The notes under the pieces are model-generated. The model saw only the letters and a program-made list of their open reading frames with translations. It had not been told where the DNA came from and ran no database searches. Source: a virus. From it: a stretch of DNA of 19,303 nt. Location: UHGV virus genome UHGV-0121367; one strand, written 5' to 3'. This document shows, in pieces, positions 4,550-19,000 of the stretch (its first letter is position 1; every line of letters begins with the position of its first letter). The position numbers were made by a program, and so were the translations under genes.

Positions 4550-5287
4550 ATGGCCACACCAAACCCGCTGGCACCAACAAAAGGTGCTGGTACCACCCTC
4601 TGGGTTTACACCGGAACTGGTGATCCATACGCCAATCCGCTTTCAGACGTTGACTGGCTGCGCCTGGCAAAGATTAAAGACCTGCAGCCCGGAGAACTGA
4701 CAGCTGAATCGGAAGATGACACCTACATCGATGATGAGAATGCCGACTGGACATCAACGATGCAGGGGCAGAAATCAGCCGGTGAAACAAACCTGACGCT
4801 CGCATGGATGCCGGAGGATTCCGGTCAGCAGGACCTGGTGAACTGGTTCGATGAAGGCACCGTGAAGGGGTATAAAATCAAATATCCGAATGGTGTTGTC
4901 GATGTCTTTAAGGGCTGGGTGAGCAGTCTCGGCAAGACCATCTCGTCTAAAGAGGTCATGACCCGCACGGCAAAAATCACCAACAATGGCAAACCATCGC
5001 TGGCCGAAGACAGTGGTACCGCGCCGATTGCCGTTACGGGGATCAGCCTGGATAAATCCACGGCGGCTGTGGCTGTCGCGGCCACGACGCAACTGGTTGT
5101 TTCTGTCCTGCCAGCAAGTGCTTCAGATAAGTCTTTCCGCGTAGCCAGTTCTGATCCGTCAAAAGCAACGGTCACCGTCAGCGGCAATACCCTGACTGTT
5201 ACCGGCGTGGCGGCAGGCACCGTCGAGATCATCGTAATGAGCAATGACGGTAACTTTGTGGCGATCTGCAAAGTCACTGTTTCCTGA
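4550..5287 (+). CDS. V: Major tail tube protein V with a C-terminal Ig-like (Big_2-type) domain
   Basis: 245-aa ORF. The N-terminal 150 aa are near-collinear with lambda gpV ([10 protein letters not shown]...[12 protein letters not shown]...). The C-terminal about 90 aa has the typical Ig-like pattern (...SFRVASSD...[22 protein letters not shown]...). Confidence 0.95.
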
Positions 5288-5291
5288 TAAC

Positions 5292-5307
5292 CGGGGCGAA
5301 AGCCCCG
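5292..5307 (+). other. GNRA-loop hairpin (cggggc-gaaa-gccccg) just after the V stop
   Basis: Perfect 6-bp GC stem with a GAAA tetraloop, 5 nt after the V double stop (tga taa), with no T-run. Candidate mRNA 3' stabiliser or processing signal. Confidence 0.45.
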
Positions 5308-5323: not shown

Positions 5324-5746
5324 ATGTTTCTAAAGAGCGAGCTGCTTGAAAGTAACGGCAGCAGCGTCACATTGTTCCAGCTGTCGGCGCTGCAGCGTAT
5401 TGAATACCTCGAATACCTGAAACAACTTGAGGCGGTTGAAGCTGGTGATTTTCAGGCTGCCATTACCCTTACCGTGAAGAGTGGAGCATATCTGGTGGCA
5501 ATGTCACTCTGGCATGGCCACGCGCTTAAAGGATCGCAGGGAGAAAACGCGGCGGCGGAAGTGGAGCAGATTCAGGATGAGGTCATGCAGACATGGCCGA
5601 CCGAACTTGTTGCCGAAGCCGAATATAAGGTGAAACTCCTGTCCGGGATGATTGCGCCGGTCACTGATGACCAGGCTGAGCCCGGTGAAGAACGTAATGA
5701 ACCCGATGAACCTGTTACTGCGGAAAAGCCCTCGCCAGTGAGCTGA
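5324..5746 (+). CDS. G: Tail assembly chaperone G
   Basis: 140-aa ORF with a GGAG RBS, similar to lambda gpG (MFLKSE...LSALQRIE...LVAMSLWH...). Confidence 0.9.
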   Translation: MFLKSELLESNGSSVTLFQLSALQRIEYLEYLKQLEAVEAGDFQAAITLTVKSGAYLVAMSLWHGHALKGSQGENAAAEVEQIQDEVMQTWPTELVAEAEYKVKLLSGMIAPVTDDQAEPGEERNEPDEPVTAEKPSPVS

Positions 5747-6075
5747 AGTTTGCCATGAAACTGGCGCGTGAGTTCGGTCGCCCGGACTGGCGTGCCATGC
5801 TTGCTGGCATGTCCTCAACGGAATACGGCGACTGGAAAATCTTCTACCAGGACAATTACTTTCATGATGCGCAGCTGGACGCACATTTCTCCGGCTTGCT
5901 CTACACCATCTCAACCCTGTTTTTTGCTGATCCGGAATTAACACCGGACAGTTTCAGCATCCTTTCCCCTGTATCGGAAAGCATCGACGTTGATGAGCCG
6001 GATGACGATACGCTGATGGCGAAGGCTGCAGGTATTTCAGGAGGCGTGCGCTATGGCCCAGACGGCAGTGGGTGA
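5710..6075 (+). CDS. T: T frame of the G-T tail assembly chaperone, expressed as a G-T fusion by programmed -1 ribosomal frameshift (no independent start expected)
   Basis: The -1 frame relative to G is open from 5710 (after TGA at 5707-5709) to the stop at 6073-6075. Its translation (...REFGRPDWRAMLAGMSSTEYGDWKIFYQDNYF...AAGISGGVRYGPDG) resembles lambda gpT. It overlaps G by 36 nt, which contain a lambda-like slippery heptamer. It ends overlapping the H start, as in lambda. Confidence 0.8.
   Translation, partial: TCYCGKALASELKFAMKLAREFGRPDWRAMLAGMSSTEYGDWKIFYQDNYFHDAQLDAHFSGLLYTISTLFFADPELTPDSFSILSPVSESIDVDEPDDDTLMAKAAGISGGVRYGPDGSG
5722..5728 (+). other. Candidate -1 frameshift slippery heptamer G.GAA.AAG (lambda has G.GGA.AAG)
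   Basis: This is the only heptamer of this kind inside the 36-nt G/T overlap. The A-site AAG to AAA slip is classical. The P-site GAA to GGA re-pairing needs a G:U pair at the middle position. Confidence 0.5.
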
Positions 6076-8569
6076 TCTGGTCGTTAACTTTGACGTTAAC
6101 TCGACGAAATTTAACGAGCAGCTTAACTACGTCAAAAAAGAATTAAAGCAGACTGGCAGCGCGGCGAACGACGAAGCGCTACGGATCCAGCAGTCCTTTA
6201 GCCGCCAGGAGAACGCCGCGCGCAAGGCGGGTATTTCAATAGGCCAGTATAACGCAGCAATGCGTATGCTTCCGGCGCAGTTTACCGATATAGCTACGCA
6301 GCTAGCGGGCGGGCAGAACCCATGGCTGATTCTGCTTCAGCAGGGCGGTCAGGTTAAGGACTCCTTTGGCGGGATAATACCAACATTCAGGGCCTTACTG
6401 GGTACGATCTCACCGTTGATGGTCGGCATCGGTGCGCTGTCCGCCGCAACGGGTGCGCTGTTCTATGCCTGGTACCAGGGCTCTTCCACTCTGTCTGACT
6501 TCAACAAAACGCTGGTACTGTCGGGGAACACAGCCGGACTGACCGCTGACCGCATGCTGGCACTGGCGCGTAACGGACAGGCAGCGGGGCTGACCTTCAA
6601 CCAGACCAGTGAAGCGCTGACCGAACTTATCAACGCGGGTGTGCGTGCTGGCTCGCGCTTTGATGACATGAGCCAGGCGGTGGCGCGGTTTACCGATGCC
6701 TCCGGCGTGCCGGTGGAAAAGGTCGCAGCAGCCTATGGCAAGCTCGCAACTGACCCGACATCTGGCCTGATCGCGATGGCCCAGCAGTTCCATAACGTTA
6801 CCGCTGAACAGATTGCCCATGTGGCGCAGCTGCAGCGTGCCGGTGATGAGGCTGGCGCACTGCAGGCGGCTAACGAGGCTGCTACAGCCGGATTCAACGA
6901 TCAGACCAAAGCCATCCGCGACAATATGGGGACGATTGAATCTTCAGCGGACTCCCTGAAGCGCGCCTTCAAGTCGATGTGGGATGCAGCCCTCGATATT
7001 GGCCGACCTGACACCGCGCAGGAGATGGTGGCAAAAGCCGAAGCCGCGTTCAAAAAAGCCGATGAAATCTGGAACCTGCGTAAAGGTGACCGATATGTCA
7101 ATGATGAGGCCCGCACCCGATTCTGGAATGACCGCGAAACGGCCAGGCTTGCGCTGGATATGGCGCAGCAGCAGGCGGGAATTGCCAGGGCGAACGAAGA
7201 GAATGCATCGCGCGAAGCGGCTGCGGAATCGGATCGCCAGAAGTATGCTGCGCAGGCACAGGCAAACTATGCCAAAATGCAGACGGCACTGGAGAAATAC
7301 ACGGCCAGGCAGAGCGAGCTCAACAAGGCGCTGAAAGAGGGGCGGATCCTCCAGGCTGACTACAACATCAACCTGGCTGCCGCGAAAAAAGAGTACGAAG
7401 ACACCCTTAAAAAGCCGAAGAAGACCCCGGCAATCAGAACCCCCGCAGGTGCCCGTGCCACCGATACGGCCAGTGCCCAGACGCTGGAGCTACAGACACA
7501 GCTGCGCACCCTGCAGGAGCATAAGAGCATCAATGACACCATCAGCCAGCAGCGTCAGGAGCTGTGGCGTCAGCAGTCCCGCTTTACGGTTCTGGAAGAG
7601 GCCGCGAAGACCCGAACGCTTTCTGCTGAGGAAAAATCCCTGCTGGCCAGTAAAAGTGAGGTGCTTTCCCGTGCGGAGCTGAATGCGAAGCTTGGCGATA
7701 AGATAGTGGCGCAGGAGCGGCTTAACCGCCTGCAGGATACGTCCCAAAAATACGTCACGCAGATCGGCGAGAAAACCCGAGCCCTTGCGGAAAGTGCTGG
7801 TATGAGCAGTCGTGCAGCACAACGTCGCAATGAAGAGGCCCAGCTTCTTCAGGGCTGGAAAAATGGTGGTGGTTCGGAGAACGATGCTGGTTATCAGAAT
7901 GAGCTGAAGGCGCTGAAGGCGTATTACGCCGAGCAGGATAAGCTTCGGGACGACTGGCAGTCCGGGGCAAAATCCGCTTGGGCAGATTATGTTGATTCTG
8001 CTTCTGATGCTTATGGCCAGATGAAGTCGTTTGCCACCAGTACGTTTGATGGAATCGGGCAAAATATGGCTGACATGCTGACACGCGGAAAGGCTGACTG
8101 GGCTGACTTCACCCGCTCCACGCTCTCCATGCTGACACAGATCCTGCTGAAACAGGCGATGGTAGGCTTAGTGGATTCAGCATCAACCGCGCTGGGATTT
8201 GCAGGTGGCGGTTATACCGGTTCAGGCGGGAAATATGAGCCAGCAGGTGTCGTTCACCGTGGTGAATTTGTTTTCACCAAAGAGGCTACCAGCCGGATCG
8301 GCGTCGGCAACCTTTACCGGATGATGAAAGGGTACGCCACAGGAGGGCTTGTCGGGGGCAGTGGCACAGGTCCCGCTGCAGCACCTTTCGGGGTGAGCGT
8401 GTACGCGCCTGTGACCGTCGAGAATGCCTCCGGTGGCGCACAGCAGCAAAATGACGGAGACAGGCTGGGTAAGGCGTATCAGCAGGTGATTAACAAATCT
8501 GTCAACGATGGTATCGCCAGGGCAATCCAGCCCGGTGGGCTTATCTGGAATGCGACCAATCGCAGGTAA
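6053..8569 (+). CDS. H: Tail tape measure protein H
   Basis: 838-aa ORF (lambda gpH is in the same size class) with an AGGAGG RBS, placed after G-T. It has long Ala/Gln/Arg/Lys-rich predicted helical regions and a Gly-rich C-terminal part. Confidence 0.93.
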   Translation: MAQTAVGDLVVNFDVNSTKFNEQLNYVKKELKQTGSAANDEALRIQQSFSRQENAARKAGISIGQYNAAMRMLPAQFTDIATQLAGGQNPWLILLQQGGQVKDSFGGIIPTFRALLGTISPLMVGIGALSAATGALFYAWYQGSSTLSDFNKTLVLSGNTAGLTADRMLALARNGQAAGLTFNQTSEALTELINAGVRAGSRFDDMSQAVARFTDASGVPVEKVAAAYGKLATDPTSGLIAMAQQFHNVTAEQIAHVAQLQRAGDEAGALQAANEAATAGFNDQTKAIRDNMGTIESSADSLKRAFKSMWDAALDIGRPDTAQEMVAKAEAAFKKADEIWNLRKGDRYVNDEARTRFWNDRETARLALDMAQQQAGIARANEENASREAAAESDRQKYAAQAQANYAKMQTALEKYTARQSELNKALKEGRILQADYNINLAAAKKEYEDTLKKPKKTPAIRTPAGARATDTASAQTLELQTQLRTLQEHKSINDTISQQRQELWRQQSRFTVLEEAAKTRTLSAEEKSLLASKSEVLSRAELNAKLGDKIVAQERLNRLQDTSQKYVTQIGEKTRALAESAGMSSRAAQRRNEEAQLLQGWKNGGGSENDAGYQNELKALKAYYAEQDKLRDDWQSGAKSAWADYVDSASDAYGQMKSFATSTFDGIGQNMADMLTRGKADWADFTRSTLSMLTQILLKQAMVGLVDSASTALGFAGGGYTGSGGKYEPAGVVHRGEFVFTKEATSRIGVGNLYRMMKGYATGGLVGGSGTGPAAAPFGVSVYAPVTVENASGGAQQQNDGDRLGKAYQQVINKSVNDGIARAIQPGGLIWNATNRR

Positions 8570-10473: not shown

Positions 10474-10869
10474 GTGAAAAAAATATTGTTCTCTGGTCTT
10501 GTGGTGCTTGCCACCGCTGGATGTGCTGATAATAGGCCAATGCCGGTATTAGATACTAAGCCTGTCACATGTTCATCAGAGGCTGAATGTAGTTATCTTT
10601 GGTCGAAGGTTCCTCAGCATTTGGAGTTTGCAACAAAAATGAGAGTAGAATCAGCTAACGATACATTTATAACAACATTCCCACCTATTGATACAAGGCA
10701 ACTTGCAGGACGGGCATCTAAGGTTAAACAGTCCGGCGATACGGCAATAAATGCTGAATTCCAATGCCATCGACATTATGGGCAGAAGGATTGTGAAAGG
10801 GCGGTAATTAATGCTACAAATTTCTTTAATCAAGCAATGAGCATTGAAAAGAAACATTTTAATAAATAA
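10474..10869 (+). CDS. Moron-encoded probable outer-membrane lipoprotein of unknown function (131 aa, GTG start)
   Basis: N-terminus MKKILFSGLVVLATAGC has a signal peptide and lipobox-like TAGC. Residue +2 is Ala, so outer-membrane sorting is expected by the E. coli rule. Four further Cys. The gene is clearly AT-richer than its flanks (by eye) and is followed by a strong intrinsic terminator. It is inserted between K and I, which are adjacent in lambda. Confidence 0.7.
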   Translation: MKKILFSGLVVLATAGCADNRPMPVLDTKPVTCSSEAECSYLWSKVPQHLEFATKMRVESANDTFITTFPPIDTRQLAGRASKVKQSGDTAINAEFQCHRHYGQKDCERAVINATNFFNQAMSIEKKHFNK

Positions 10870-10932: not shown

Positions 10933-11520
10933 ATGCAAGAGGTCATGAGTCGAATTGAATTAGGCAGTGTTCTTGGAAAAACGTTTGGCAAAGTTCACTA
11001 CCGTCTGATATCCCGCGTAAGCGAAGCAGGCGTTGCACTCGCAAAAACCATTCCTGGATTTGAGCAGTTTATGATTTCCAGCCAACGCCGTGGGCTCACA
11101 TACTCCGTGTTTAAGGGTAAAAAAAACATCGGTGTGGATGACCTTGGCTTCCCGATTACCGGCGAGGTTATTCGCATTGTTCCGGTAATCATCGGGAGTA
11201 AAAAAGCCGGTTTGATTCAAACTATCCTGGGCGCAGTATTAGTGATTGCATCGATCTGGATGCCAGGTCTGAGTATAGCTGCCAGCAATATGATGTTTGC
11301 TGCTGGTGCGTCCATAACGCTGGGGGGGGTAGTTCAGATGTTATCCCCTCAGGCTACAGGGCTGGCCAGCAAACAGAGCTCAGATAACCGCGCCTCATAC
11401 GCGTTCGGCGGAGTCACAAACACCGCTGCGCAGGGCTACCCGGTACCACTTCTTTATGGTCGCCGGCGAATCGGCGGTGCGATTATTTCTGGCGGGATAT
11501 ATGTCGAAGATCAGCAGTAA
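10933..11520 (+). CDS. I: Tail tip assembly protein I
   Basis: 195-aa ORF. The central and C-terminal parts (hydrophobic Gly/Ala-rich segment ...LGGVVQMLSPQA..., then ...AQGYPVPLLYGRRRIGG...) match lambda gpI. The N-terminus is shorter and divergent. Confidence 0.85.
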   Translation: MQEVMSRIELGSVLGKTFGKVHYRLISRVSEAGVALAKTIPGFEQFMISSQRRGLTYSVFKGKKNIGVDDLGFPITGEVIRIVPVIIGSKKAGLIQTILGAVLVIASIWMPGLSIAASNMMFAAGASITLGGVVQMLSPQATGLASKQSSDNRASYAFGGVTNTAAQGYPVPLLYGRRRIGGAIISGGIYVEDQQ

Positions 11521-11540: not shown

Positions 11541-11690
11541 ATGTCTTTTGAGTCACGAGTAGAAAAAACTGAAAATGAAACATCTGAAGTTAATGAAACG
11601 GTCCCGCATGAGACCGTAGAGTACGATGCTTCAATGACATTAGGCGTCAATAAGCTTCATATTTTTGACGATGTCTTGAATTTGTGGTGA
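11541..11690 (+). CDS. Small acidic hypothetical protein (49 aa) in the AT-rich I-J island
   Basis: ATG at 11541 with AAGGAG at 11528-11533 (7-nt spacer). Translation MSFESRVEKTENETSEVNETVPHETVEYDASMTLGVNKLHIFDDVLNLW is about 30 percent Asp/Glu. Too short for the ORF track. Its 3' end overlaps the convergent minus-strand ORF by 51 nt. Confidence 0.35.
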   Translation: MSFESRVEKTENETSEVNETVPHETVEYDASMTLGVNKLHIFDDVLNLW

Positions 11691-11855
11691 GTTTGTCTTT
11701 GATAGGATTTCAATAACTTGTTGCCTTGTATCTACTGGCAATGCTGCTGTTAATACCATTGTAACTTGTCTTAGAGCCACAATTTCTAAAGCGATTTCTC
11801 TAGGAATATTTTCGTCAAGAGTAAATCTAAAATCCACGAACTTTTCTTCGATCAT
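11640..11855 (-). CDS. Hypothetical 71-aa protein encoded antisense to the late operon in the I-J island
   Basis: ORF track 11640..11855 (-). ATG preceded by GGAG with a 7-nt spacer on the minus strand. AT-rich codon usage unlike the flanking tail genes. No signal peptide and no family I can recognise. Confidence 0.45.
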   Translation of the reverse strand: MIEEKFVDFRFTLDENIPREIALEIVALRQVTMVLTAALPVDTRQQVIEILSKTNSPQIQDIVKNMKLIDA

Positions 11856-12021: not shown

Positions 12022-15000
12022 ATGGCTACAGAGAAAGTATTAAAGGGGCGCAAAGGCGGCAAATCCAGTTCACGAACTCCTACCGAACAGCCTGATGATC
12101 TGCAATCTGTAGCGAAGGCAAAAATCCTCGTTGCGCTTGGGGAAGGGGAGTTCGCAGGGCAGCTAACCGGCAAAGATATCTACCTGGACGGAACGGCGCT
12201 GGAGAATGCCGACGGTTCCCAAAACTTCAGCGGCGTGACGTGGGAGTTTCGCGCGGGGACGCAGGCTCAAAAATATATTCAGGGTATTCCCGGTACCGAA
12301 AACGAAATCAGCGTGGGAACTGAGGTATCAAGCGCTACAGCCTGGACGCGCACGTTTACCAATACGCAGCTTTCAGCAGTTCGTCTGCGTCTGAAATGGC
12401 CCTCGCTTTTCAAACAGGAAGACGACGGAGATCTGGTGGGTTACTCGGTCAATTATGCGATTGACCTGCAGACGGACGGCGGCACATGGCAGACGGTACT
12501 CAATACCAGCGTGACCGGCAAAACGACGTCTGGTTATGAGCGCAGCCACCGTATCGATTTACCGCAAGCTGGCAGCACCTGGACAATACGTCTGCGTAAG
12601 ATTACCTCTGATGCCAACAGCGCGAAGATCGGCGACACGATGACGCTGCAGAGCTTCACCGAGGTGATTGACGCCAAGTTACGATATCCAAACACAGCGC
12701 TACTCTACATCGAATTCGATTCAAGTCAGTTTAACGGCTCTATCCCGCAGATCTCCTGCGAGCCCCGCGGCCGTGTTATCCGCGTTCCAGATACCTACGA
12801 CCCTGAAACCCGCACTTATAGCGGTACATGGACCGGTGCGTTTAAGTGGGCATGGACGGATAACCCTGCGTGGATTTTTTACGATCTGGTTGTTTCTGAC
12901 CGGTTCGGCCTCGGGCACCGTTTGACCGCTGCGAATATTGATAAATGGACGCTTTATCAGGTTGCCCAGTATTGTGATCAGATGGTACCAGACGGCAAAG
13001 GGGGCAACGGTACCGAACCACGTTATACCTGCAACGTGTACATCCAGGACCGAAACGACGCTTATACAGTCCTGCGTGATTTTGCGGCCATATTCCGTGG
13101 CATGACGTACTGGGGAGGCGATCAGATCGTTGCTCTGGCCGATATGCCCCGAGATGTTGATTACAGCTACACGCGCGCCAACGTTGTTGGCGGTCGCTTC
13201 ACCTATTCAAGCAGCACCACGAAAACCCGCTACACCACAGCGCTGGTTTCATGGTCAGACCCGGGTAACGCTTATGCCGACGCGATGGAGCCGGTATTTG
13301 AGCAGGCGCTGGTAGCGCGATACGGCTTCAATCAGCTGGAAATGACAGCCATCGGCTGCACCAGGCAGTCAGAAGCGAACCGAAAGGGGCGCTGGGGCAT
13401 TCTCACCAACAACAAGGATCGCGTTGTTTCGTTTGATGTCGGGCTGGACGGAAACATTCCGCAGCCTGGCTACATCATCGCCGTGGAAGACGAGCTGCTT
13501 TCCGGAAAGGTTATGGGCGGCCGCATCAGCGCCGTTAACGGTCGCGTTATCAAACTTGACCGCGTAGCTGATGCAGCACCAGGTGATCGCCTTATTCTCA
13601 ACCTGCCTTCCGGAGCGTCGCAGAGCAGGACCATTCAGGCCGTGAACGGGGAATCAGTCACAGTCACCACGGCATACAGTGAGACGCCACAGGCCGAAGC
13701 TGTTTGGGTGGTTGAATCTGACGAGCTTTACGCGCAGCAATATCGCGTTATCAGCGTTACGGATAATAATGACGGAACGTATTCGATTGCTGGCGCTTTG
13801 CACGATCCGGATAAATATGCGCGTATCGATACCGGTGCCATTATCGACCAGCGGCCAATAAGTGTAATTCCGCCCGGTAATCAGTCCCCGCCAGCTAATA
13901 TCGCGATCAGTTCGTTTTCTGTCGTTCAGCAGAATATCAGCGTTGAGACCATGCGCGTCAGCTGGGACCAGGCGAAAAATGCTATCGCGTATGAGGCACA
14001 GTGGCGTCGCAATGACGGGAACTGGGTGAATGTGCCGCGCAGCTCCACCACGTCATTCGATGTTCCGGGGATTTATGCAGGACGCTACCTGGTTCGCGTG
14101 CGTGCCATCAATGCCGCCGAAATTTCATCTGGGTGGGGCTATTCAGAAGAGAAAACGTTGACGGGTAAAGTGGGAAACCCACCGAAGCCGGTTGGCTTCA
14201 TCGCTTCTGAAAACGTGGTATTCGGTATCGAGCTGAACTGGGGATTCCCGGCGAATACCGAAGACACGCTGAAGACGGAAATTCAGTATAGCCTGACCGG
14301 TACCGAGGACGATGCAATGCTGCTGGCCGATGTGCCTTACCCGCAGCGCAAATATCAGCAGATGGGCCTTAAGGCTGGGCAGATTTTCTGGTACCGCGCG
14401 CAACTTGTTGACCGGACCGGTAACGAATCGGGGTATACCGACTGGGTGCGCGGGCAGGCGAGCACCGATGTTTCAGAAATTACGGATGCAATATTCAAAG
14501 AGATTCAGGAAACAGAGGTTTTCAAAAACCTGATCGCCACTGTAGATGAGGATACCAAAAATATTGCCGAACTGACTGATGCGGTCCGGGAAAATGCCGA
14601 CGCGCTGGCAGCTGCAATTATTGACGGGAAACAAACTGCAGAGGATTTGAAATCCAGTACTGAAAATCTGGCAGCAGCGATTCGTGAAAATGCAGATAGT
14701 CTTGCCGCGGCGGTTTCATCTAACAAACAGACCGCTGAAGCTATTATTGCCAATTCTCTCGCGATTACTGATGTCGTATTGCGTCAGACCGCCCAAAACG
14801 GCGCTAATACGGCGCAATTCGAGCAACTACGGGAAGTTGTAGCGACAGAAACTGAAGCTCGCGTGACCGATGTTACCCGTCTCGAAGCTAAGACGAAGGA
14901 TAACGCGGCGGGCATCACTGAGGTTCGACAAGCACTTGCTGATGAAACTCAAGCCCGCGCAACTGCTGTCGATCAGCTTACTGCTGCTACGGACGCGGCG

Positions 15001-16479
15001 GGTAAGGTTGGCGCACAGAACAGCGCGGATATCACATCACTTACCCAAGTTGTTACAGATAGCACCTCTGCGGCCGCTTCACGATTTGATGAGCTTAGCG
15101 CTGCTACTGCCAGCGCTGCGGGCGGCATTCAGAGTAATGCCATCGCTCTGATTAACAACACGTTAGCTCAGGTTAGCCAGCGCAACACCATGACGGTTCA
15201 GTACCTGGACAACAAGGCCGGGATCGAGCGCACACAGGAAGCCATAGCCAACGAGACCGAAGCCCGTGTTGCTGATGTACTGCGCCTTGAAGCTACTACA
15301 GAGCACAACGCAGCTGATATCATTGAAGTGCGTCAAGCTATGTCTGACGAGTCTCAAGCAGTCGCGACGCGTCTTAATGAACTCAATGCTGCTACTAAGA
15401 CTGCCGACTCTAAAGCGGACGCGGCGGGTAAGGTTGGCGCACAAAATGCAGCGAAAATCACAGCGCTTGAGCAGGTTGTGACAGATACAGAATCAGCTAC
15501 AGCGCTGCGACTCGACGAGCTTTCTGCTGCTACTAAAGCTGCCAGCGATAAAGCAGATGAGGCGGAACAAGCCAGTACTCGCAATGCCGCAGAAATCAGC
15601 GAGTTGGATCAAGTGGTCACGGATTTGGACAGCGCCACAGCGTTACGTTTTGACGAAATCTCAGCAGAAATCGCAGATCAGAGCAGTAATGTGGGCGTCA
15701 TTAAAGGAGGCATTCAGAATAACGCGATTGCAGTAATTCAGCAGACGTTAGCGCAGGTGAATCAGTCGCAGCGAATGAGTGTGCAGTACGGCGACAATAA
15801 AGCAGGGATCGAACGTGTCGATAACGTGATGGCTGATGCAAGCCTGGCTGTGGCTGAGTCACTCAAAACGCTGGATTCAAGTGCAGGAGGTGGTACTGCA
15901 AATACGACTGATTTTGCAAAAACTCTTGCGGATTTCACGCAGGCGTCAGCAACGCGGATTAACTCGCTGACAGTGTCAGTTAATGGGCAGACGACAGTAA
16001 TTGAACAGAACGCACGGGCGGTTGCAGATATCAGCGGAAATCTGAATGCGATGTACAGTATTAAAGTCGCTATCGACTCGAACGGACGGCAATACGCTGC
16101 CGGAATGGGTATCGGAGTCGAAAATACGCCAGCAGGTATGCAGTCGCAGGTGCTGTTCCTGGCTAACCGCTTTGCTGTTATGACTCAGGCCGGTGGTGCG
16201 GTCACGCTGCCATTCGTTATTCAGAATGGCCAGGCCATTATCAGGGATACAGTCATTGGCGACGGGACCATAAGCAATGCAAAAATTGGCAATTACATCC
16301 AGTCGAACAATTATGTTGCCGGCTCTGTTGGCTGGAAACTGGATAAGTCCGGGACGTTTGAGAACTACGGTTCGACAGCTGGGGAGGGAGCCATGAAGCA
16401 GACCAACCAGACAATCAGCGTCAAGGATGGCAACAACGTTCTGAGAGTGCAGGTTGGCCGATTAACGGGGGTGTTCTGA
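12022..16479 (+). CDS. J: Tail tip attachment / host specificity protein J (central tail fibre), enlarged relative to lambda J
   Basis: 1485-aa ORF. The N-terminal two thirds are collinear with lambda gpJ motifs (...YPNTALL...QISCEPRGRVIRVPDTYDPETRTYSGTWTG...YCDQMVPDGKGG...). A long Ala-rich repeat region follows, and the C-terminal region is unlike the lambda LamB-binding end. Confidence 0.95.
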   Translation: MATEKVLKGRKGGKSSSRTPTEQPDDLQSVAKAKILVALGEGEFAGQLTGKDIYLDGTALENADGSQNFSGVTWEFRAGTQAQKYIQGIPGTENEISVGTEVSSATAWTRTFTNTQLSAVRLRLKWPSLFKQEDDGDLVGYSVNYAIDLQTDGGTWQTVLNTSVTGKTTSGYERSHRIDLPQAGSTWTIRLRKITSDANSAKIGDTMTLQSFTEVIDAKLRYPNTALLYIEFDSSQFNGSIPQISCEPRGRVIRVPDTYDPETRTYSGTWTGAFKWAWTDNPAWIFYDLVVSDRFGLGHRLTAANIDKWTLYQVAQYCDQMVPDGKGGNGTEPRYTCNVYIQDRNDAYTVLRDFAAIFRGMTYWGGDQIVALADMPRDVDYSYTRANVVGGRFTYSSSTTKTRYTTALVSWSDPGNAYADAMEPVFEQALVARYGFNQLEMTAIGCTRQSEANRKGRWGILTNNKDRVVSFDVGLDGNIPQPGYIIAVEDELLSGKVMGGRISAVNGRVIKLDRVADAAPGDRLILNLPSGASQSRTIQAVNGESVTVTTAYSETPQAEAVWVVESDELYAQQYRVISVTDNNDGTYSIAGALHDPDKYARIDTGAIIDQRPISVIPPGNQSPPANIAISSFSVVQQNISVETMRVSWDQAKNAIAYEAQWRRNDGNWVNVPRSSTTSFDVPGIYAGRYLVRVRAINAAEISSGWGYSEEKTLTGKVGNPPKPVGFIASENVVFGIELNWGFPANTEDTLKTEIQYSLTGTEDDAMLLADVPYPQRKYQQMGLKAGQIFWYRAQLVDRTGNESGYTDWVRGQASTDVSEITDAIFKEIQETEVFKNLIATVDEDTKNIAELTDAVRENADALAAAIIDGKQTAEDLKSSTENLAAAIRENADSLAAAVSSNKQTAEAIIANSLAITDVVLRQTAQNGANTAQFEQLREVVATETEARVTDVTRLEAKTKDNAAGITEVRQALADETQARATAVDQLTAATDAAGKVGAQNSADITSLTQVVTDSTSAAASRFDELSAATASAAGGIQSNAIALINNTLAQVSQRNTMTVQYLDNKAGIERTQEAIANETEARVADVLRLEATTEHNAADIIEVRQAMSDESQAVATRLNELNAATKTADSKADAAGKVGAQNAAKITALEQVVTDTESATALRLDELSAATKAASDKADEAEQASTRNAAEISELDQVVTDLDSATALRFDEISAEIADQSSNVGVIKGGIQNNAIAVIQQTLAQVNQSQRMSVQYGDNKAGIERVDNVMADASLAVAESLKTLDSSAGGGTANTTDFAKTLADFTQASATRINSLTVSVNGQTTVIEQNARAVADISGNLNAMYSIKVAIDSNGRQYAAGMGIGVENTPAGMQSQVLFLANRFAVMTQAGGAVTLPFVIQNGQAIIRDTVIGDGTISNAKIGNYIQSNNYVAGSVGWKLDKSGTFENYGSTAGEGAMKQTNQTISVKDGNNVLRVQVGRLTGVF
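14584..14745 (+). repeat. Short 96-bp (32-aa) direct repeat in J encoding RENAD(A/S)LAAA...KQTAE
   Basis: cgggaaaatgccgacgcgctggcagctgca at about 14587 and cgtgaaaatgcagatagtcttgccgcggcg at about 14683. Confidence 0.6.
14849..15830 (+). repeat. Diverged in-frame tandem repeats inside J (unit about 405-426 bp, two to three copies)
   Basis: Near-identical 23-mer gcggcgggtaaggttggcgcaca at 14995 and 15421 (period 426 bp). Related blocks gaaactgaagctcgcgtgaccgatgtta (14849) and gagaccgaagcccgtgttgctgatgta (15253). A third partial copy around 15560-15830 repeats the ...IQ(S/N)NAIA(L/V)I..TLAQV.Q...M.VQY.DNKAGIER... module. Confidence 0.8.
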
Positions 16480-16480
16480 T

Positions 16481-16783
16481 ATGGCTTATGGAATACAGAC
16501 CTGGGATGCTTCGGGAAACCCCAACAACTACGGAATCAAGCCCGTTTCCGTTGTTGGACGTATACAACTTGCCGCCGGACAAAACTCCGGCAGCTGGTCT
16601 TTCACTGTACCCTCAGGAATGAAGGTCGGTTTTGCGCTCTCACTTGATGAAGGAGGTAACAGCGTAGGGAGGAGCATTGTCGCGTCAGGGAACACAATAA
16701 CCGTAACCGCAGCCTCTTCTGTGGGCCTGGGTAATTACCCGGCCTCTAAATGTGAGGTGGTCGTTTTCATGGAGAAAGCATAA
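16481..16783 (+). CDS. Hypothetical protein (100 aa) translationally coupled to J, likely tail-associated
   Basis: The start is 2 nt after the J stop. Codon usage is like the flanking structural genes. It shares the motifs G-x-x-x-W-D-A-S-G and S-G-S-W with the downstream ORF. Confidence 0.7.
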   Translation: MAYGIQTWDASGNPNNYGIKPVSVVGRIQLAAGQNSGSWSFTVPSGMKVGFALSLDEGGNSVGRSIVASGNTITVTAASSVGLGNYPASKCEVVVFMEKA

Positions 16784-17457
16784 TGGCCGAATTTGGCGCG
16801 ATGATATTAATGGATAACGGGAATCCCTTTGTAACGCCACAATCAACGCCTTTCTGTCTTTACGGGAAGTATACCTTCAATTCATCCGCGAATGGCAGTT
16901 CTCAGCAGGTTGCTCAAAATATCGCTTTAAACGCTGATTACCCAGTGATGGTTTTTATCAAAACCACCAATACAGCACAGCCCACTCCGGTTATGTCTTA
17001 CAGGAACGGCGGTAATGTGTATGTTGCTGGTGTTAATCCCTACAACCAAAGTTTCACTTTAACGGCGTACGTTTTTGCCATATTCCCGCAGATATTACCG
17101 AAATGGGGTTTGGCAATATGGGATGCGAGCGGAAAGCTTGTGTTAACTAATGAGTCCCGTGTGCTATCAGACCTGCAGACGGTTGGCACGCCTGGTGCAA
17201 ACGGCGGGATAAATATTGACCAGACGCTGAGCGGGTCATGGGCCGTTGCACCTGCTCAGTTGGGTCAGACCATCATTGTGAATAATTCAACCCAGCCTCC
17301 GACTATCTACACGATAAATGCTTATTCTTCATGCAGGTTTGACGGGGCCAATACGAGGATAAACGCAGGGGGGACCTCCACTGGGGCAGGTTCACCTGGA
17401 GGGGGAACGAATACTGGCATTTCATTAACCGCCATAAATACAGCGGCCTATGATTGA
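16783..17457 (+). CDS. Hypothetical protein (224 aa) with Gly-rich C-terminus, apparently built from two copies of the module in the upstream ORF
   Basis: Start overlaps the upstream stop (TAATG). The N-terminus MAEFGAMILMDNGNP parallels MAYGIQTWDASGNP of the preceding ORF. The internal segment KWGLAIWDASGKLV...LSGSWAV repeats the same motif. Confidence 0.72.
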   Translation: MAEFGAMILMDNGNPFVTPQSTPFCLYGKYTFNSSANGSSQQVAQNIALNADYPVMVFIKTTNTAQPTPVMSYRNGGNVYVAGVNPYNQSFTLTAYVFAIFPQILPKWGLAIWDASGKLVLTNESRVLSDLQTVGTPGANGGINIDQTLSGSWAVAPAQLGQTIIVNNSTQPPTIYTINAYSSCRFDGANTRINAGGTSTGAGSPGGGTNTGISLTAINTAAYD

Positions 17458-17568: not shown

Positions 17569-17802
17569 ATGAGAAAACTGATTATCTGCATGGCAGGCGC
17601 TGTCATGCTTACAGGATGCGCTGGCGTAATTGAGAAACAGGAACCAGTTTGCAGCGGCACTGCAATCGTTGGCGGTCAGGAAACTACGGTTCAGATTTAC
17701 GGTGTGCGTAAACAAAACAACCAGACGCAGTACCGGGCTGGATATCCTTTCAGCTGGCGCTGGGTAAGTGCGAATACATTTACCGAAACAACCTGCAAAT
17801 AA
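17569..17802 (+). CDS. Small outer-membrane lipoprotein (77 aa); candidate Cor/Llp-like superinfection exclusion protein
   Basis: N-terminus MRKLIICMAGAVMLTGC has a canonical lipobox LTGC with Ala at +2. Two further Cys (C28, C76). Size and position (downstream of J, before the tail fibre) match Cor-type exclusion lipoproteins of lambdoid phages. The functional call is inference. Confidence 0.6.
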   Translation: MRKLIICMAGAVMLTGCAGVIEKQEPVCSGTAIVGGQETTVQIYGVRKQNNQTQYRAGYPFSWRWVSANTFTETTCK

Positions 17803-17823
17803 CCCACTACGCTTAAACATAAA

Positions 17824-17846
17824 CCTCGCCCCGGCGGGTTTTTTAT
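17824..17846 (+). terminator. Probable intrinsic terminator after the lipoprotein gene
   Basis: GC-rich imperfect hairpin (cctcgcc / ggcggg) followed by ttttttatt at 17839-17847. Confidence 0.5.
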
Positions 17847-17863
17847 TATCTGGAGAAAATAAA

Positions 17864-19000
17864 ATGATCTATACAACCGGCACTATCGCTGTCAGCGGTA
17901 ATACTCTGACCGGCACCGGAACTAATTTTACTGCTGCGGGTTCATTAATTCGGAACGGCTGCACTGTTATTGCACTGACAAATCCGGCACAGGTATTTCA
18001 GATTACTGCAATTAACAGCGCTACGAGTCTCACTGTAACGCCTGCTGCCAGCCCAGCAATTCCAGCCGGTACGAAATATTCAATTCTGCTGAGTGATAGT
18101 CTGAGCGTTGATGGGCTGGCGCAAGATATTGCCGAGACGTTCACTCTGTACCAGCGCAATATGAGCGGATTCGCTGACGTAATGAACGGCACAGGGGACG
18201 TGACAATTACGATTAACGGTGTGGCTGTGACCGTTCCTGGTCAGAAATCGCTAGCGAAGAAAGGGGCAAATAAGGACATTACGAGCCTGACCGGGTTAAC
18301 TACAGCGCTTAGTATCGCTCAGGGCGGCACCGGTGGCAAAACAGCAGCAGAGGCCCGCACATACCTCGGTTTAGGAAGTAGTGCGACAAAGGATGTCGGA
18401 ACTGCGGCAGGGAATGTTATGCAGGTGGGAGCTTTTGGGGTTGGTGCTGCTCTCGAAAATAAGCCCACAGATGCCAGTTCATCCTTCATCAGTGATGCTG
18501 CTGGCAATACTCTGTGGGCTCCTGCGAATGGCTGTGGGTTTCAGAGTTCCTACACCGAGCAGCGAATTGCGCAGCTGTGGATTACTTACGGTGGTGCGAT
18601 GTTCAGCCGTTTTCTAACAACCACTGATGACCCTCAAACACCAAAATCATCAGTGCCGTGGGCGCAGATGCAGTCTGCAGGTACATCGGACATAAATTTC
18701 AAGAAGGTTACTGGAGAACTTAATTTAGAAGTGTCTCTGGCCAACATCGTGGCAATGGATTTTAAGACCTTCTACTACCTTGCTGATGAAGAGAAAACGA
18801 TACGCCGAGGTGTTGTTGCTCAGGAACTGGAAAAGATAGATCCGCAATATGTTCACTCGGCTGAGGAGTCGGGGAAAATGACCCTAGACCTCAATCCTCT
18901 GGTGCTCGATGCGCTGGCGGCAATCAAAGAGCTGGCAATCCGCGTCAGCGCATTAGAGGGCGACGCTAAATCTCCGGCTTCTGGCTCATCCGCTGGTTAA
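17864..19000 (+). CDS. Tail fibre protein with a C-terminal intramolecular chaperone (Peptidase S74-like auto-cleaving) domain
   Basis: ATG at 17864 preceded by GGAG at 17852-17855. The upstream ATG at 17768 would overlap the lipoprotein gene and terminator. The C-terminal approximately 100 aa carry S74-type hallmarks: GTSDINFKK (Ser-Asp...Lys at the predicted cleavage site, Ser about residue 275), RRGVVAQELEKIDPQYV, and a terminal helical ...LDALAAIKELAIRVSALE. Confidence 0.82.
   Translation: MIYTTGTIAVSGNTLTGTGTNFTAAGSLIRNGCTVIALTNPAQVFQITAINSATSLTVTPAASPAIPAGTKYSILLSDSLSVDGLAQDIAETFTLYQRNMSGFADVMNGTGDVTITINGVAVTVPGQKSLAKKGANKDITSLTGLTTALSIAQGGTGGKTAAEARTYLGLGSSATKDVGTAAGNVMQVGAFGVGAALENKPTDASSSFISDAAGNTLWAPANGCGFQSSYTEQRIAQLWITYGGAMFSRFLTTTDDPQTPKSSVPWAQMQSAGTSDINFKKVTGELNLEVSLANIVAMDFKTFYYLADEEKTIRRGVVAQELEKIDPQYVHSAEESGKMTLDLNPLVLDALAAIKELAIRVSALEGDAKSPASGSSAG

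Follow-up and report, generated by a model that had tools for sequence, protein, structure and literature searches.

In phage lambda, the G-T frameshift occurs at about 4%, and a G:GT ratio of about 30:1 is needed. Published data on how much G-T is made, and on the need for it in tail assembly, were found for lambda alone. The downstream sequence reportedly had only a modest effect in the lambda work of Levin et al. in 1993, without a defined stimulatory structure. The mechanism of such -1 shifts is textbook knowledge, and GGAAAAG as a G-T frameshift site is already known. In the N15 record (AF064539), the misc_feature 'slippery sequence for -1 translational frameshift' is GGAAAAG, and gene 15 is described as the 'downstream half of translational frameshift product'. 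The record of phage LLS (PQ299149) likewise contains a 'minus-one programmed translational frameshift site GGAAAAG' together with a joined CDS. A full-text literature search for GGAAAAG or G_GAA_AAG in a phage-tail context returned only Peng et al. 2019, in which G GAA AAG served in vitro as the less slippery control for G GGA AAG. In that study, tRNA-Glu was described as meeting GGA with a second-position mismatch, and the sequence gave mainly 0-frame product with wild-type EF-G. The PRFect paper treats the re-pairing of tRNA-Glu from GAA to GGA as fully complementary once G:U pairs are allowed, and it lists an XXYYYYZ ('twofour') motif class, which GGAAAAG fits as GG AAAA G; the classes in that paper derive from annotation.

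The DNA analysed here, called the window, is the whole 19,303-nucleotide stretch of UHGV virus genome UHGV-0121367. Two overlapping ORFs sit between the genes V and H, and the resulting order V-G-T-H is that of lambda. The features of this region are as follows.

4550-5287, plus strand: major tail tube protein V, upstream of G (Pfam PF16461 Phage_TTP_12 and Big_2)
5324-5746, plus strand: gene G, tail assembly chaperone, 140 aa, 0 frame, from ATG 5324 to TGA 5744-5746 (ORF list and translation)
5707-5709, plus strand: TGA that closes the -1 (T) frame and bounds the interval for the frameshift on its 5' side, the interval opening at 5710 (translation of the -1 frame)
5722-5728, plus strand: slippery heptamer G_GAA_AAG, P-site GAA to GGA and A-site AAG to AAA
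5728-6075, plus strand: T-frame coding part of G-T, 115 aa after the shift, stop at 6073-6075
5734-5808, plus strand: predicted three-way-junction RNA with helices P1, P2 and P3 and the G stop codon in the junction, candidate frameshift stimulator
5734-5743 with 5799-5808, plus strand: P1
5747-5751 with 5758-5762, plus strand: P2
5763-5769/5771-5777 with 5782-5788/5790-5796, plus strand: P3
5755-5757, plus strand: ATG used by annotators as the T start, probably no real start codon
6053-8569, plus strand: tape measure protein H, downstream of T (Pfam PF06791 TMP_2 and PF09718 Tape_meas_lam_C)

The G product matched Pfam PF06894 Phage_TAC_2 (lambda gpG) at E=3e-51 and was 46% identical to lambda gpG, and residues 164-241 of the predicted 250-aa G-T fusion matched PF06223 Phage_tail_T (E=7e-13). 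T lies in the -1 frame of G, a step from frame 2 to frame 1, and the start of H overlaps the end of T by 23 nt. An alignment placed the TGA at 5707-5709 in N15, mEp237, and HK225 as well. The 752 bp G-T segment was 99.5% identical to mEp237, 91.5% to N15, and 90.8% to HK225, and it was found in 31 of 5426 complete E. coli genomes. Judged by its sequence, the window represents the tail module of an E. coli prophage, and all of its tail ORFs are intact. With these Pfam domains and this gene order, the G/T pair is a predicted lambda-type tail assembly chaperone with a -1 programmed frameshift, as the initial annotation had proposed.

Several other elements of the window were also recorded. A hairpin (CGGGGC-GAAA-GCCCCG, 5292-5307) lies between V and G and is not followed by a proper T run. 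It was missed by a simple terminator scan of the window, and its N15 homologue is annotated as a putative rho-independent terminator; the hairpin could reduce G/T/H expression relative to V. Four ORFs gave no Pfam match at E up to 0.001: 10474-10869 and 10933-11520 (plus strand), 11640-11855 (minus strand), and 16481-17457 (plus strand). The ORF at 10933-11520 occupies the same position as a RefSeq 'tail assembly protein' in the related MB06022 prophage (L004), and the small minus-strand ORF in the gap between it and J is possibly a moron. The J-like tip protein (12022-16479, 1485 aa) has FNIII-A_GpJ and Phage_Tail_Tip domains and exceeds the approximately 1150-aa J of the closest E. coli prophage (L004). 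In the 410-aa product of the downstream ORF at 17768-19000, a Peptidase_S74 (endosialidase chaperone) domain was identified, as is typical for tail fibres that cleave themselves.

Translation confirmed that the T frame opens at 5710 and that G ends at 5746, giving an overlap of 37 nt inclusive (previously written as 36 nt). The 0-frame codons at the site are GCG (5720), GAA (5723), AAG (5726), CCC, TCG, CCA, GTG, AGC, and TGA, and each codon from 5708 to 5746 was inspected by hand for -1 re-pairing. Cognate re-pairing was found only at A_AAG (5725-5728), with no alternative shift site of this kind among the inspected codons, and the only heptamer was G_GAA_AAG (5722-5728). This agrees with the initial annotation, which had named it as the sole slippery-like sequence in the overlap. 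The A-site half corresponds to the canonical X_XXY_YYZ motif, since AAAG at 5725-5728 provides the YYY bases and allows the cognate AAG to AAA slip that had been described. The P-site half departs from the canonical motif, as bases 1-3 are G, G, and A instead of XXX. The tRNA-Glu would consequently face the -1 codon GGA with a G.U pair at the middle position, a point also made in the initial annotation that follows from the sequence and has the same description in Peng et al. 2019. On the heptamer alone, it is reasonable to suppose that GGAAAAG tunes the G:G-T ratio downward.

The heptamer by itself is not rare, as GGAAAAG occurred four times in the window against 2.5 expected. Two further in-phase G_GAA_AAG copies are located at 6715-6721 in H and at 18829-18835 in the 17768-19000 fibre ORF. 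The -1 frames at these copies dead-end after 10 and 9 codons, respectively, and the RNA that follows them is only of average stability (-20.4 and -24.1 kcal/mol). The presence of in-phase copies elsewhere suggests that the heptamer is not very shifty on its own. The site in the G/T overlap exceeds chance because of its position and conservation, not because of the occurrence of the heptamer. Signals of the dnaX/IS911 type have a Shine-Dalgarno-like element about 6-14 nt before the heptamer; no such element was seen upstream of the site, the sequence from 5695 to 5721 (AATGAACCCGATGAACCTGTTACTGCG) being without GGAG or AGGA. Our main reading, with a probability of roughly 0.85, is that a two-tRNA -1 slip at G_GAA_AAG yields G-T and that the downstream fold probably raises slippage.

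For comparison with relatives, 79 IMG/VR and 41 GTDB loci were gathered, and nine named phages were added later; 84 distinct N15/lambda-type G-T fusions were compared. A second IMG/VR scan with lambda G-T gave little new diversity, its hits being nearly all 99% copies of lambda. The heptamer was GGAAAAG in 78 of the 84 distinct fusions, GGGAAAG in four, GGCAAAG in one, and AGAAAAG in one. The host genera included Escherichia, Trabulsiella, Citrobacter, Enterobacter, Kluyvera, Yokenella, Pluralibacter, Superficieibacter, and others. G_GAA_AAG was also present in Fels-1, Gifsy-2, Ayreon, and Providencia phage PSTCR8lys, whose T products are 38-46% identical; the minority heptamers were GGGAAAG in the lambda group and AAAAAAG in Stx phages such as VT1-Sakai. 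The stop of G lies 3-6 nt past the heptamer in several relatives, and the interval for the shift is thereby reduced to about 25 nt.

Synonymous variation was absent from the Glu and Lys codons of the site. Third-position entropy was about 1.3-1.8 bits in the 15 preceding codons and approximately zero at Ala133, Glu134, and Lys135, whereas of 100 comparable codon columns outside the overlap, likewise conserved and degenerate, only 7 were invariant. The Lys codon was AAG in 84 of 84 sequences, although AAA accounts for 55% of Lys codons in these genes. These patterns bear on whether tRNA-Lys might slip alone on A_AAG (5725-5728), with the tetramer and a downstream stimulator sufficing and the P-site Glu being nonspecific. 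According to Sharma et al. 2014, A_AAG is by far the top -1 tetramer in E. coli, giving 0.15% alone (background, 0.11%) and 5.6% with a pseudoknot, and G_GGA_AAG is among the best heptamers. The variants AGAAAAG and GGCAAAG, which retain A_AAG and spoil P-site re-pairing, are also in keeping with a slip of tRNA-Lys only. However, the Glu codon was GAA in all 79 sequences that have Glu at this position and never GAG, despite GAG making up 39% of Glu codons in these genes. Moreover, the base preceding the P codon was G in 83 of the 84 distinct sequences: the upstream codon varies in amino acid (GCG, CTG, GTG, CCG) and its third base stays G. In Stx phages, TCA precedes AAA_AAG, and base 1 is thus A exactly where the P codon is AAA. 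Because base 1 follows the first base of the P codon, a two-tRNA slip is favoured over an A-site-only slip; neither the base-1 nor the GAA pattern would be expected without selection on P-site re-pairing. We therefore regard a slip of tRNA-Lys alone as improbable, and the two-tRNA slip at G_GAA_AAG is preferred.

The two single-base variants come from IMG/VR contigs (L025, GGCAAAG; L065, AGAAAAG), and their P-site re-pairing is weakened. Strict two-tRNA re-pairing may not be essential, or these prophages may be defective. The GTDB contigs L103-L114 had a G-T overlap sequence the same as that of lambda under titles such as Neobacillus, Oceanobacillus, Kitasatospora, Shewanella, Pseudomonas, Leeuwenhoekiella, Chromatium, and others. 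For several of them, the contig name gives a coverage of about 1x, and the assigned hosts are implausible; they look like lambda DNA contamination of the assemblies. The Shigella flexneri sequence CP182557 (L124) contains a lambda-type G-T with indels just past the heptamer and a truncated G, and it appears to be a decayed prophage copy.

The RNA downstream of the heptamer was predicted to fold into an unusually stable structure. The 87-nt segment 5729-5815 had a minimum free energy (MFE) of -44.7 kcal/mol (z=-4.9 versus dinucleotide shuffles), with the structure accounting for 58% of the ensemble, and it ranked first in stability among the 6406 overlapping segments of this length in the window (mean -22.5, sd 5.6). 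P1 begins 5 nt past the heptamer, which is the usual spacing of a -1 stimulator; in signals of the dnaX/IS911 type, the stimulatory structure starts 5-9 nt downstream. When synonymous codons were resampled with the T protein kept, the energy was -32.1 +/- 4.1 (z=-3.1), and the native value was reached by 4 of 2000 resampled sequences; this signal was weak in 4 of 13 lineages (L073, L071, Ayreon, and PSTCR8lys). P1 and P3 formed in each of the 54 distinct N15/lambda-type sequences when these were folded individually. A different fold was predicted for Fels-1 and Ayreon, and a strong hairpin of its own for Gifsy-2. Support for the structure is mainly thermodynamic, and covariation is thin: P1 was 95% paired, with one compensatory change from A-U to G-C in the lambda clade that represents a single evolutionary event. 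The invariant synonymous sites Leu147, Asp155, Ala158, and Ala161 lie in helices, and third positions in loops vary. The region of the fold encodes the most conserved part of T, and its nucleotide conservation is partly protein-driven.

A search of Rfam gave zero family matches for the whole window at gathering thresholds and for the surroundings of the site at E up to 10, and no description of the downstream RNA element was found in Rfam and the searchable literature. The conserved downstream fold is the only element of this locus that may be new, and it is a candidate for the downstream contribution to G-T frameshifting. On the predictions above, we consider the chance that it acts as a frameshift stimulator to be about even. 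Such a very stable fold could offset the weaker heptamer.

Two further ideas concerning the fold were rejected. A local stem between CGCCAGT (5733-5739) and ACTGGCG (5760-5766) competes with P3, lies outside the MFE structure, and had mixed support in relatives. The idea that a weaker heptamer is compensated by a stronger fold was examined by comparing the mean MFE of 38 GGAAAAG sequences (-39.3) with that of 14 GGGAAAG sequences (-36.6); it is unsupported because the MFE ranges fully overlap and only one phylogenetic contrast is available.

The initial annotation had named translation of T from the ATG at 5755 as a finding that would speak against its reading of a frameshift, which would then be unnecessary. 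An ATG is indeed present, and a stand-alone T beginning there is annotated in mEp237, HK225, and by RefSeq PGAP. However, the codon is CTG in lambda, in L053-L063, in L071-L083, and in Enterobacter-type loci, and CGG in Gifsy-2. No Shine-Dalgarno-like sequence was found before this ATG, which falls within the very stable predicted fold. The T-frame peptide from the heptamer to the first ATG is conserved also in sequences in which G has already ended and dual coding is over. Even PGAP treats its separate T as an incomplete pseudogene. T is unlikely to be initiated independently because the ATG at 5755 is not conserved, and with the remaining evidence we rate this as very improbable. Production of T as part of G-T by the two-tRNA slip remains the preferred reading.

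The same records illustrate how this locus is annotated. In the mEp237 and HK225 records, the stand-alone T starts from the non-conserved ATG and the frameshift is absent. In E. coli MB06022 (L004), RefSeq PGAP labels T at 6432-6746 as an 'incomplete; partial in the middle of a contig' pseudogene, and the frameshift is modelled in none of these records (L002, L003, and L004). Annotation pipelines continue to miss the frameshift, leaving a pseudogene T in PGAP and stand-alone T ORFs in phage records.

The comparison across related prophages that had been called for revises one claim of the initial annotation, namely that the site 'retains only a variant' of GGGAAAG. With 78 of 84 fusions and relatives at only 38-46% T identity sharing it, GGAAAAG is, from these alignments, the family norm and not a degraded GGGAAAG, and it is probably the ancestral heptamer of the G/T family. 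A decayed lambda-type site in a defective prophage, making little or no G-T, might be suspected from the single G-to-A step that separates the two heptamers and from the poor slippage of G GAA AAG in the minimal in vitro system of Peng et al. 2019. This possibility is extremely remote, as the same heptamer occurs in the isolated or plaque-forming phages N15, mEp237, HK225, and LLS, is invariant over many enterobacterial genera and in distant T relatives, and in the window accompanies a tail module with intact ORFs. Slippage of RNA polymerase on the four-A run at 5724-5727, producing -1 mRNAs, hardly deserves consideration, as the run is far too short (productive bacterial transcriptional slippage requires homopolymer runs of about 7-9 or more) and the conserved flanking G's and AAG end match tRNA re-pairing rules, not run length.

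From the reading-frame geometry, homology, conservation, and predicted fold, we infer the slip, how often it happens, and a stimulating effect of the fold, as follows. The majority of ribosomes translating G would stop at 5744-5746 and release gpG. A minority, with the P site occupied by tRNA-Glu (on GAA) and the A site by tRNA-Lys (on AAG), would slip back by one base at 5722-5728; tRNA-Lys would re-pair on AAA as a cognate, and tRNA-Glu would re-pair on GGA through G-C, G.U, and A-U pairs. The three-way junction, probably positioned at the mRNA entrance during decoding of the heptamer, would increase slippage on an otherwise weak heptamer. Shifted ribosomes would read the T frame through to 6075 and produce the 250-aa G-T with the junction ...PVTAEK|ALASELKF.... 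By analogy with lambda, gpG and G-T would act as chaperones of the tape measure protein and bring in the tail tube protein, and the shift frequency would set the gpG to G-T ratio. Because the ratio set by the site is expected to control tail assembly, the site would be essential to the phage.

A broader interpretation of the family, which we put forward tentatively and consider rather doubtful, is that the lambda G/T signal is a composite. It would consist of a deliberately weak, near-cognate G_GAA_AAG, which is the majority and probably ancestral form, and a conserved three-way junction 5-7 nt downstream within the most conserved coding part of T; the G_GGA_AAG of lambda would then be derived. 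If this were true, phages with G_GAA_AAG should be more sensitive than lambda to the thiolation state of host tRNAs, because the slipping tRNAs Glu and Lys both carry mnm5s2U34. Motif finders limited to X_XXY_YYZ would overlook the majority heptamer of the G/T family.

Among the known systems, N15 (genes 14/15), mEp237, HK225, and LLS share with the window the same gene pair (91-99.5% nucleotide identity), the heptamer, its aligned position, and the TGA that bounds the overlap. The window differs from the N15 group by only a few substitutions, such as A for C at 5706. Lambda resembles the window in having homologous G (46%) and T, a site near the end of G, the -1 direction, the A-site slip, and the predicted P1/P2/P3 fold. 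The lambda heptamer lies in the context GCG GGA AAG and that of the window in GCG GAA AAG, a single G/A difference. The P-site codon is therefore GGA (Gly) in lambda and GAA (Glu) in the window; re-pairing alters only the wobble position in the former, whereas the latter needs the middle G.U pair. The predicted lambda fold is -36.5 kcal/mol with a 7-nt spacer, compared with -44.7 kcal/mol and a 5-nt spacer in the window. Stx-converting phages of the VT1-Sakai type have a T that is 57% identical, the same site, and a P1/P3-like downstream fold; unlike the window, they use a fully canonical dnaX-like A_AAA_AAG with a Lys-Lys junction. At the GGGGGAA tail-chaperone site of actinophages, the Glu tRNA is in the A site, whereas it occupies the P site in the window. 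With the E. coli dnaX signal (A_AAA_AAG), the window would share the movement of tRNA-Lys from AAG to AAA and a stable structure about 5-6 nt downstream. In contrast, dnaX combines an upstream SD-like element with a simple stem-loop, and the window is without such an element and has a predicted three-way junction. Frameshifting at dnaX reaches approximately 50%, whereas a few per cent would be expected for the window.
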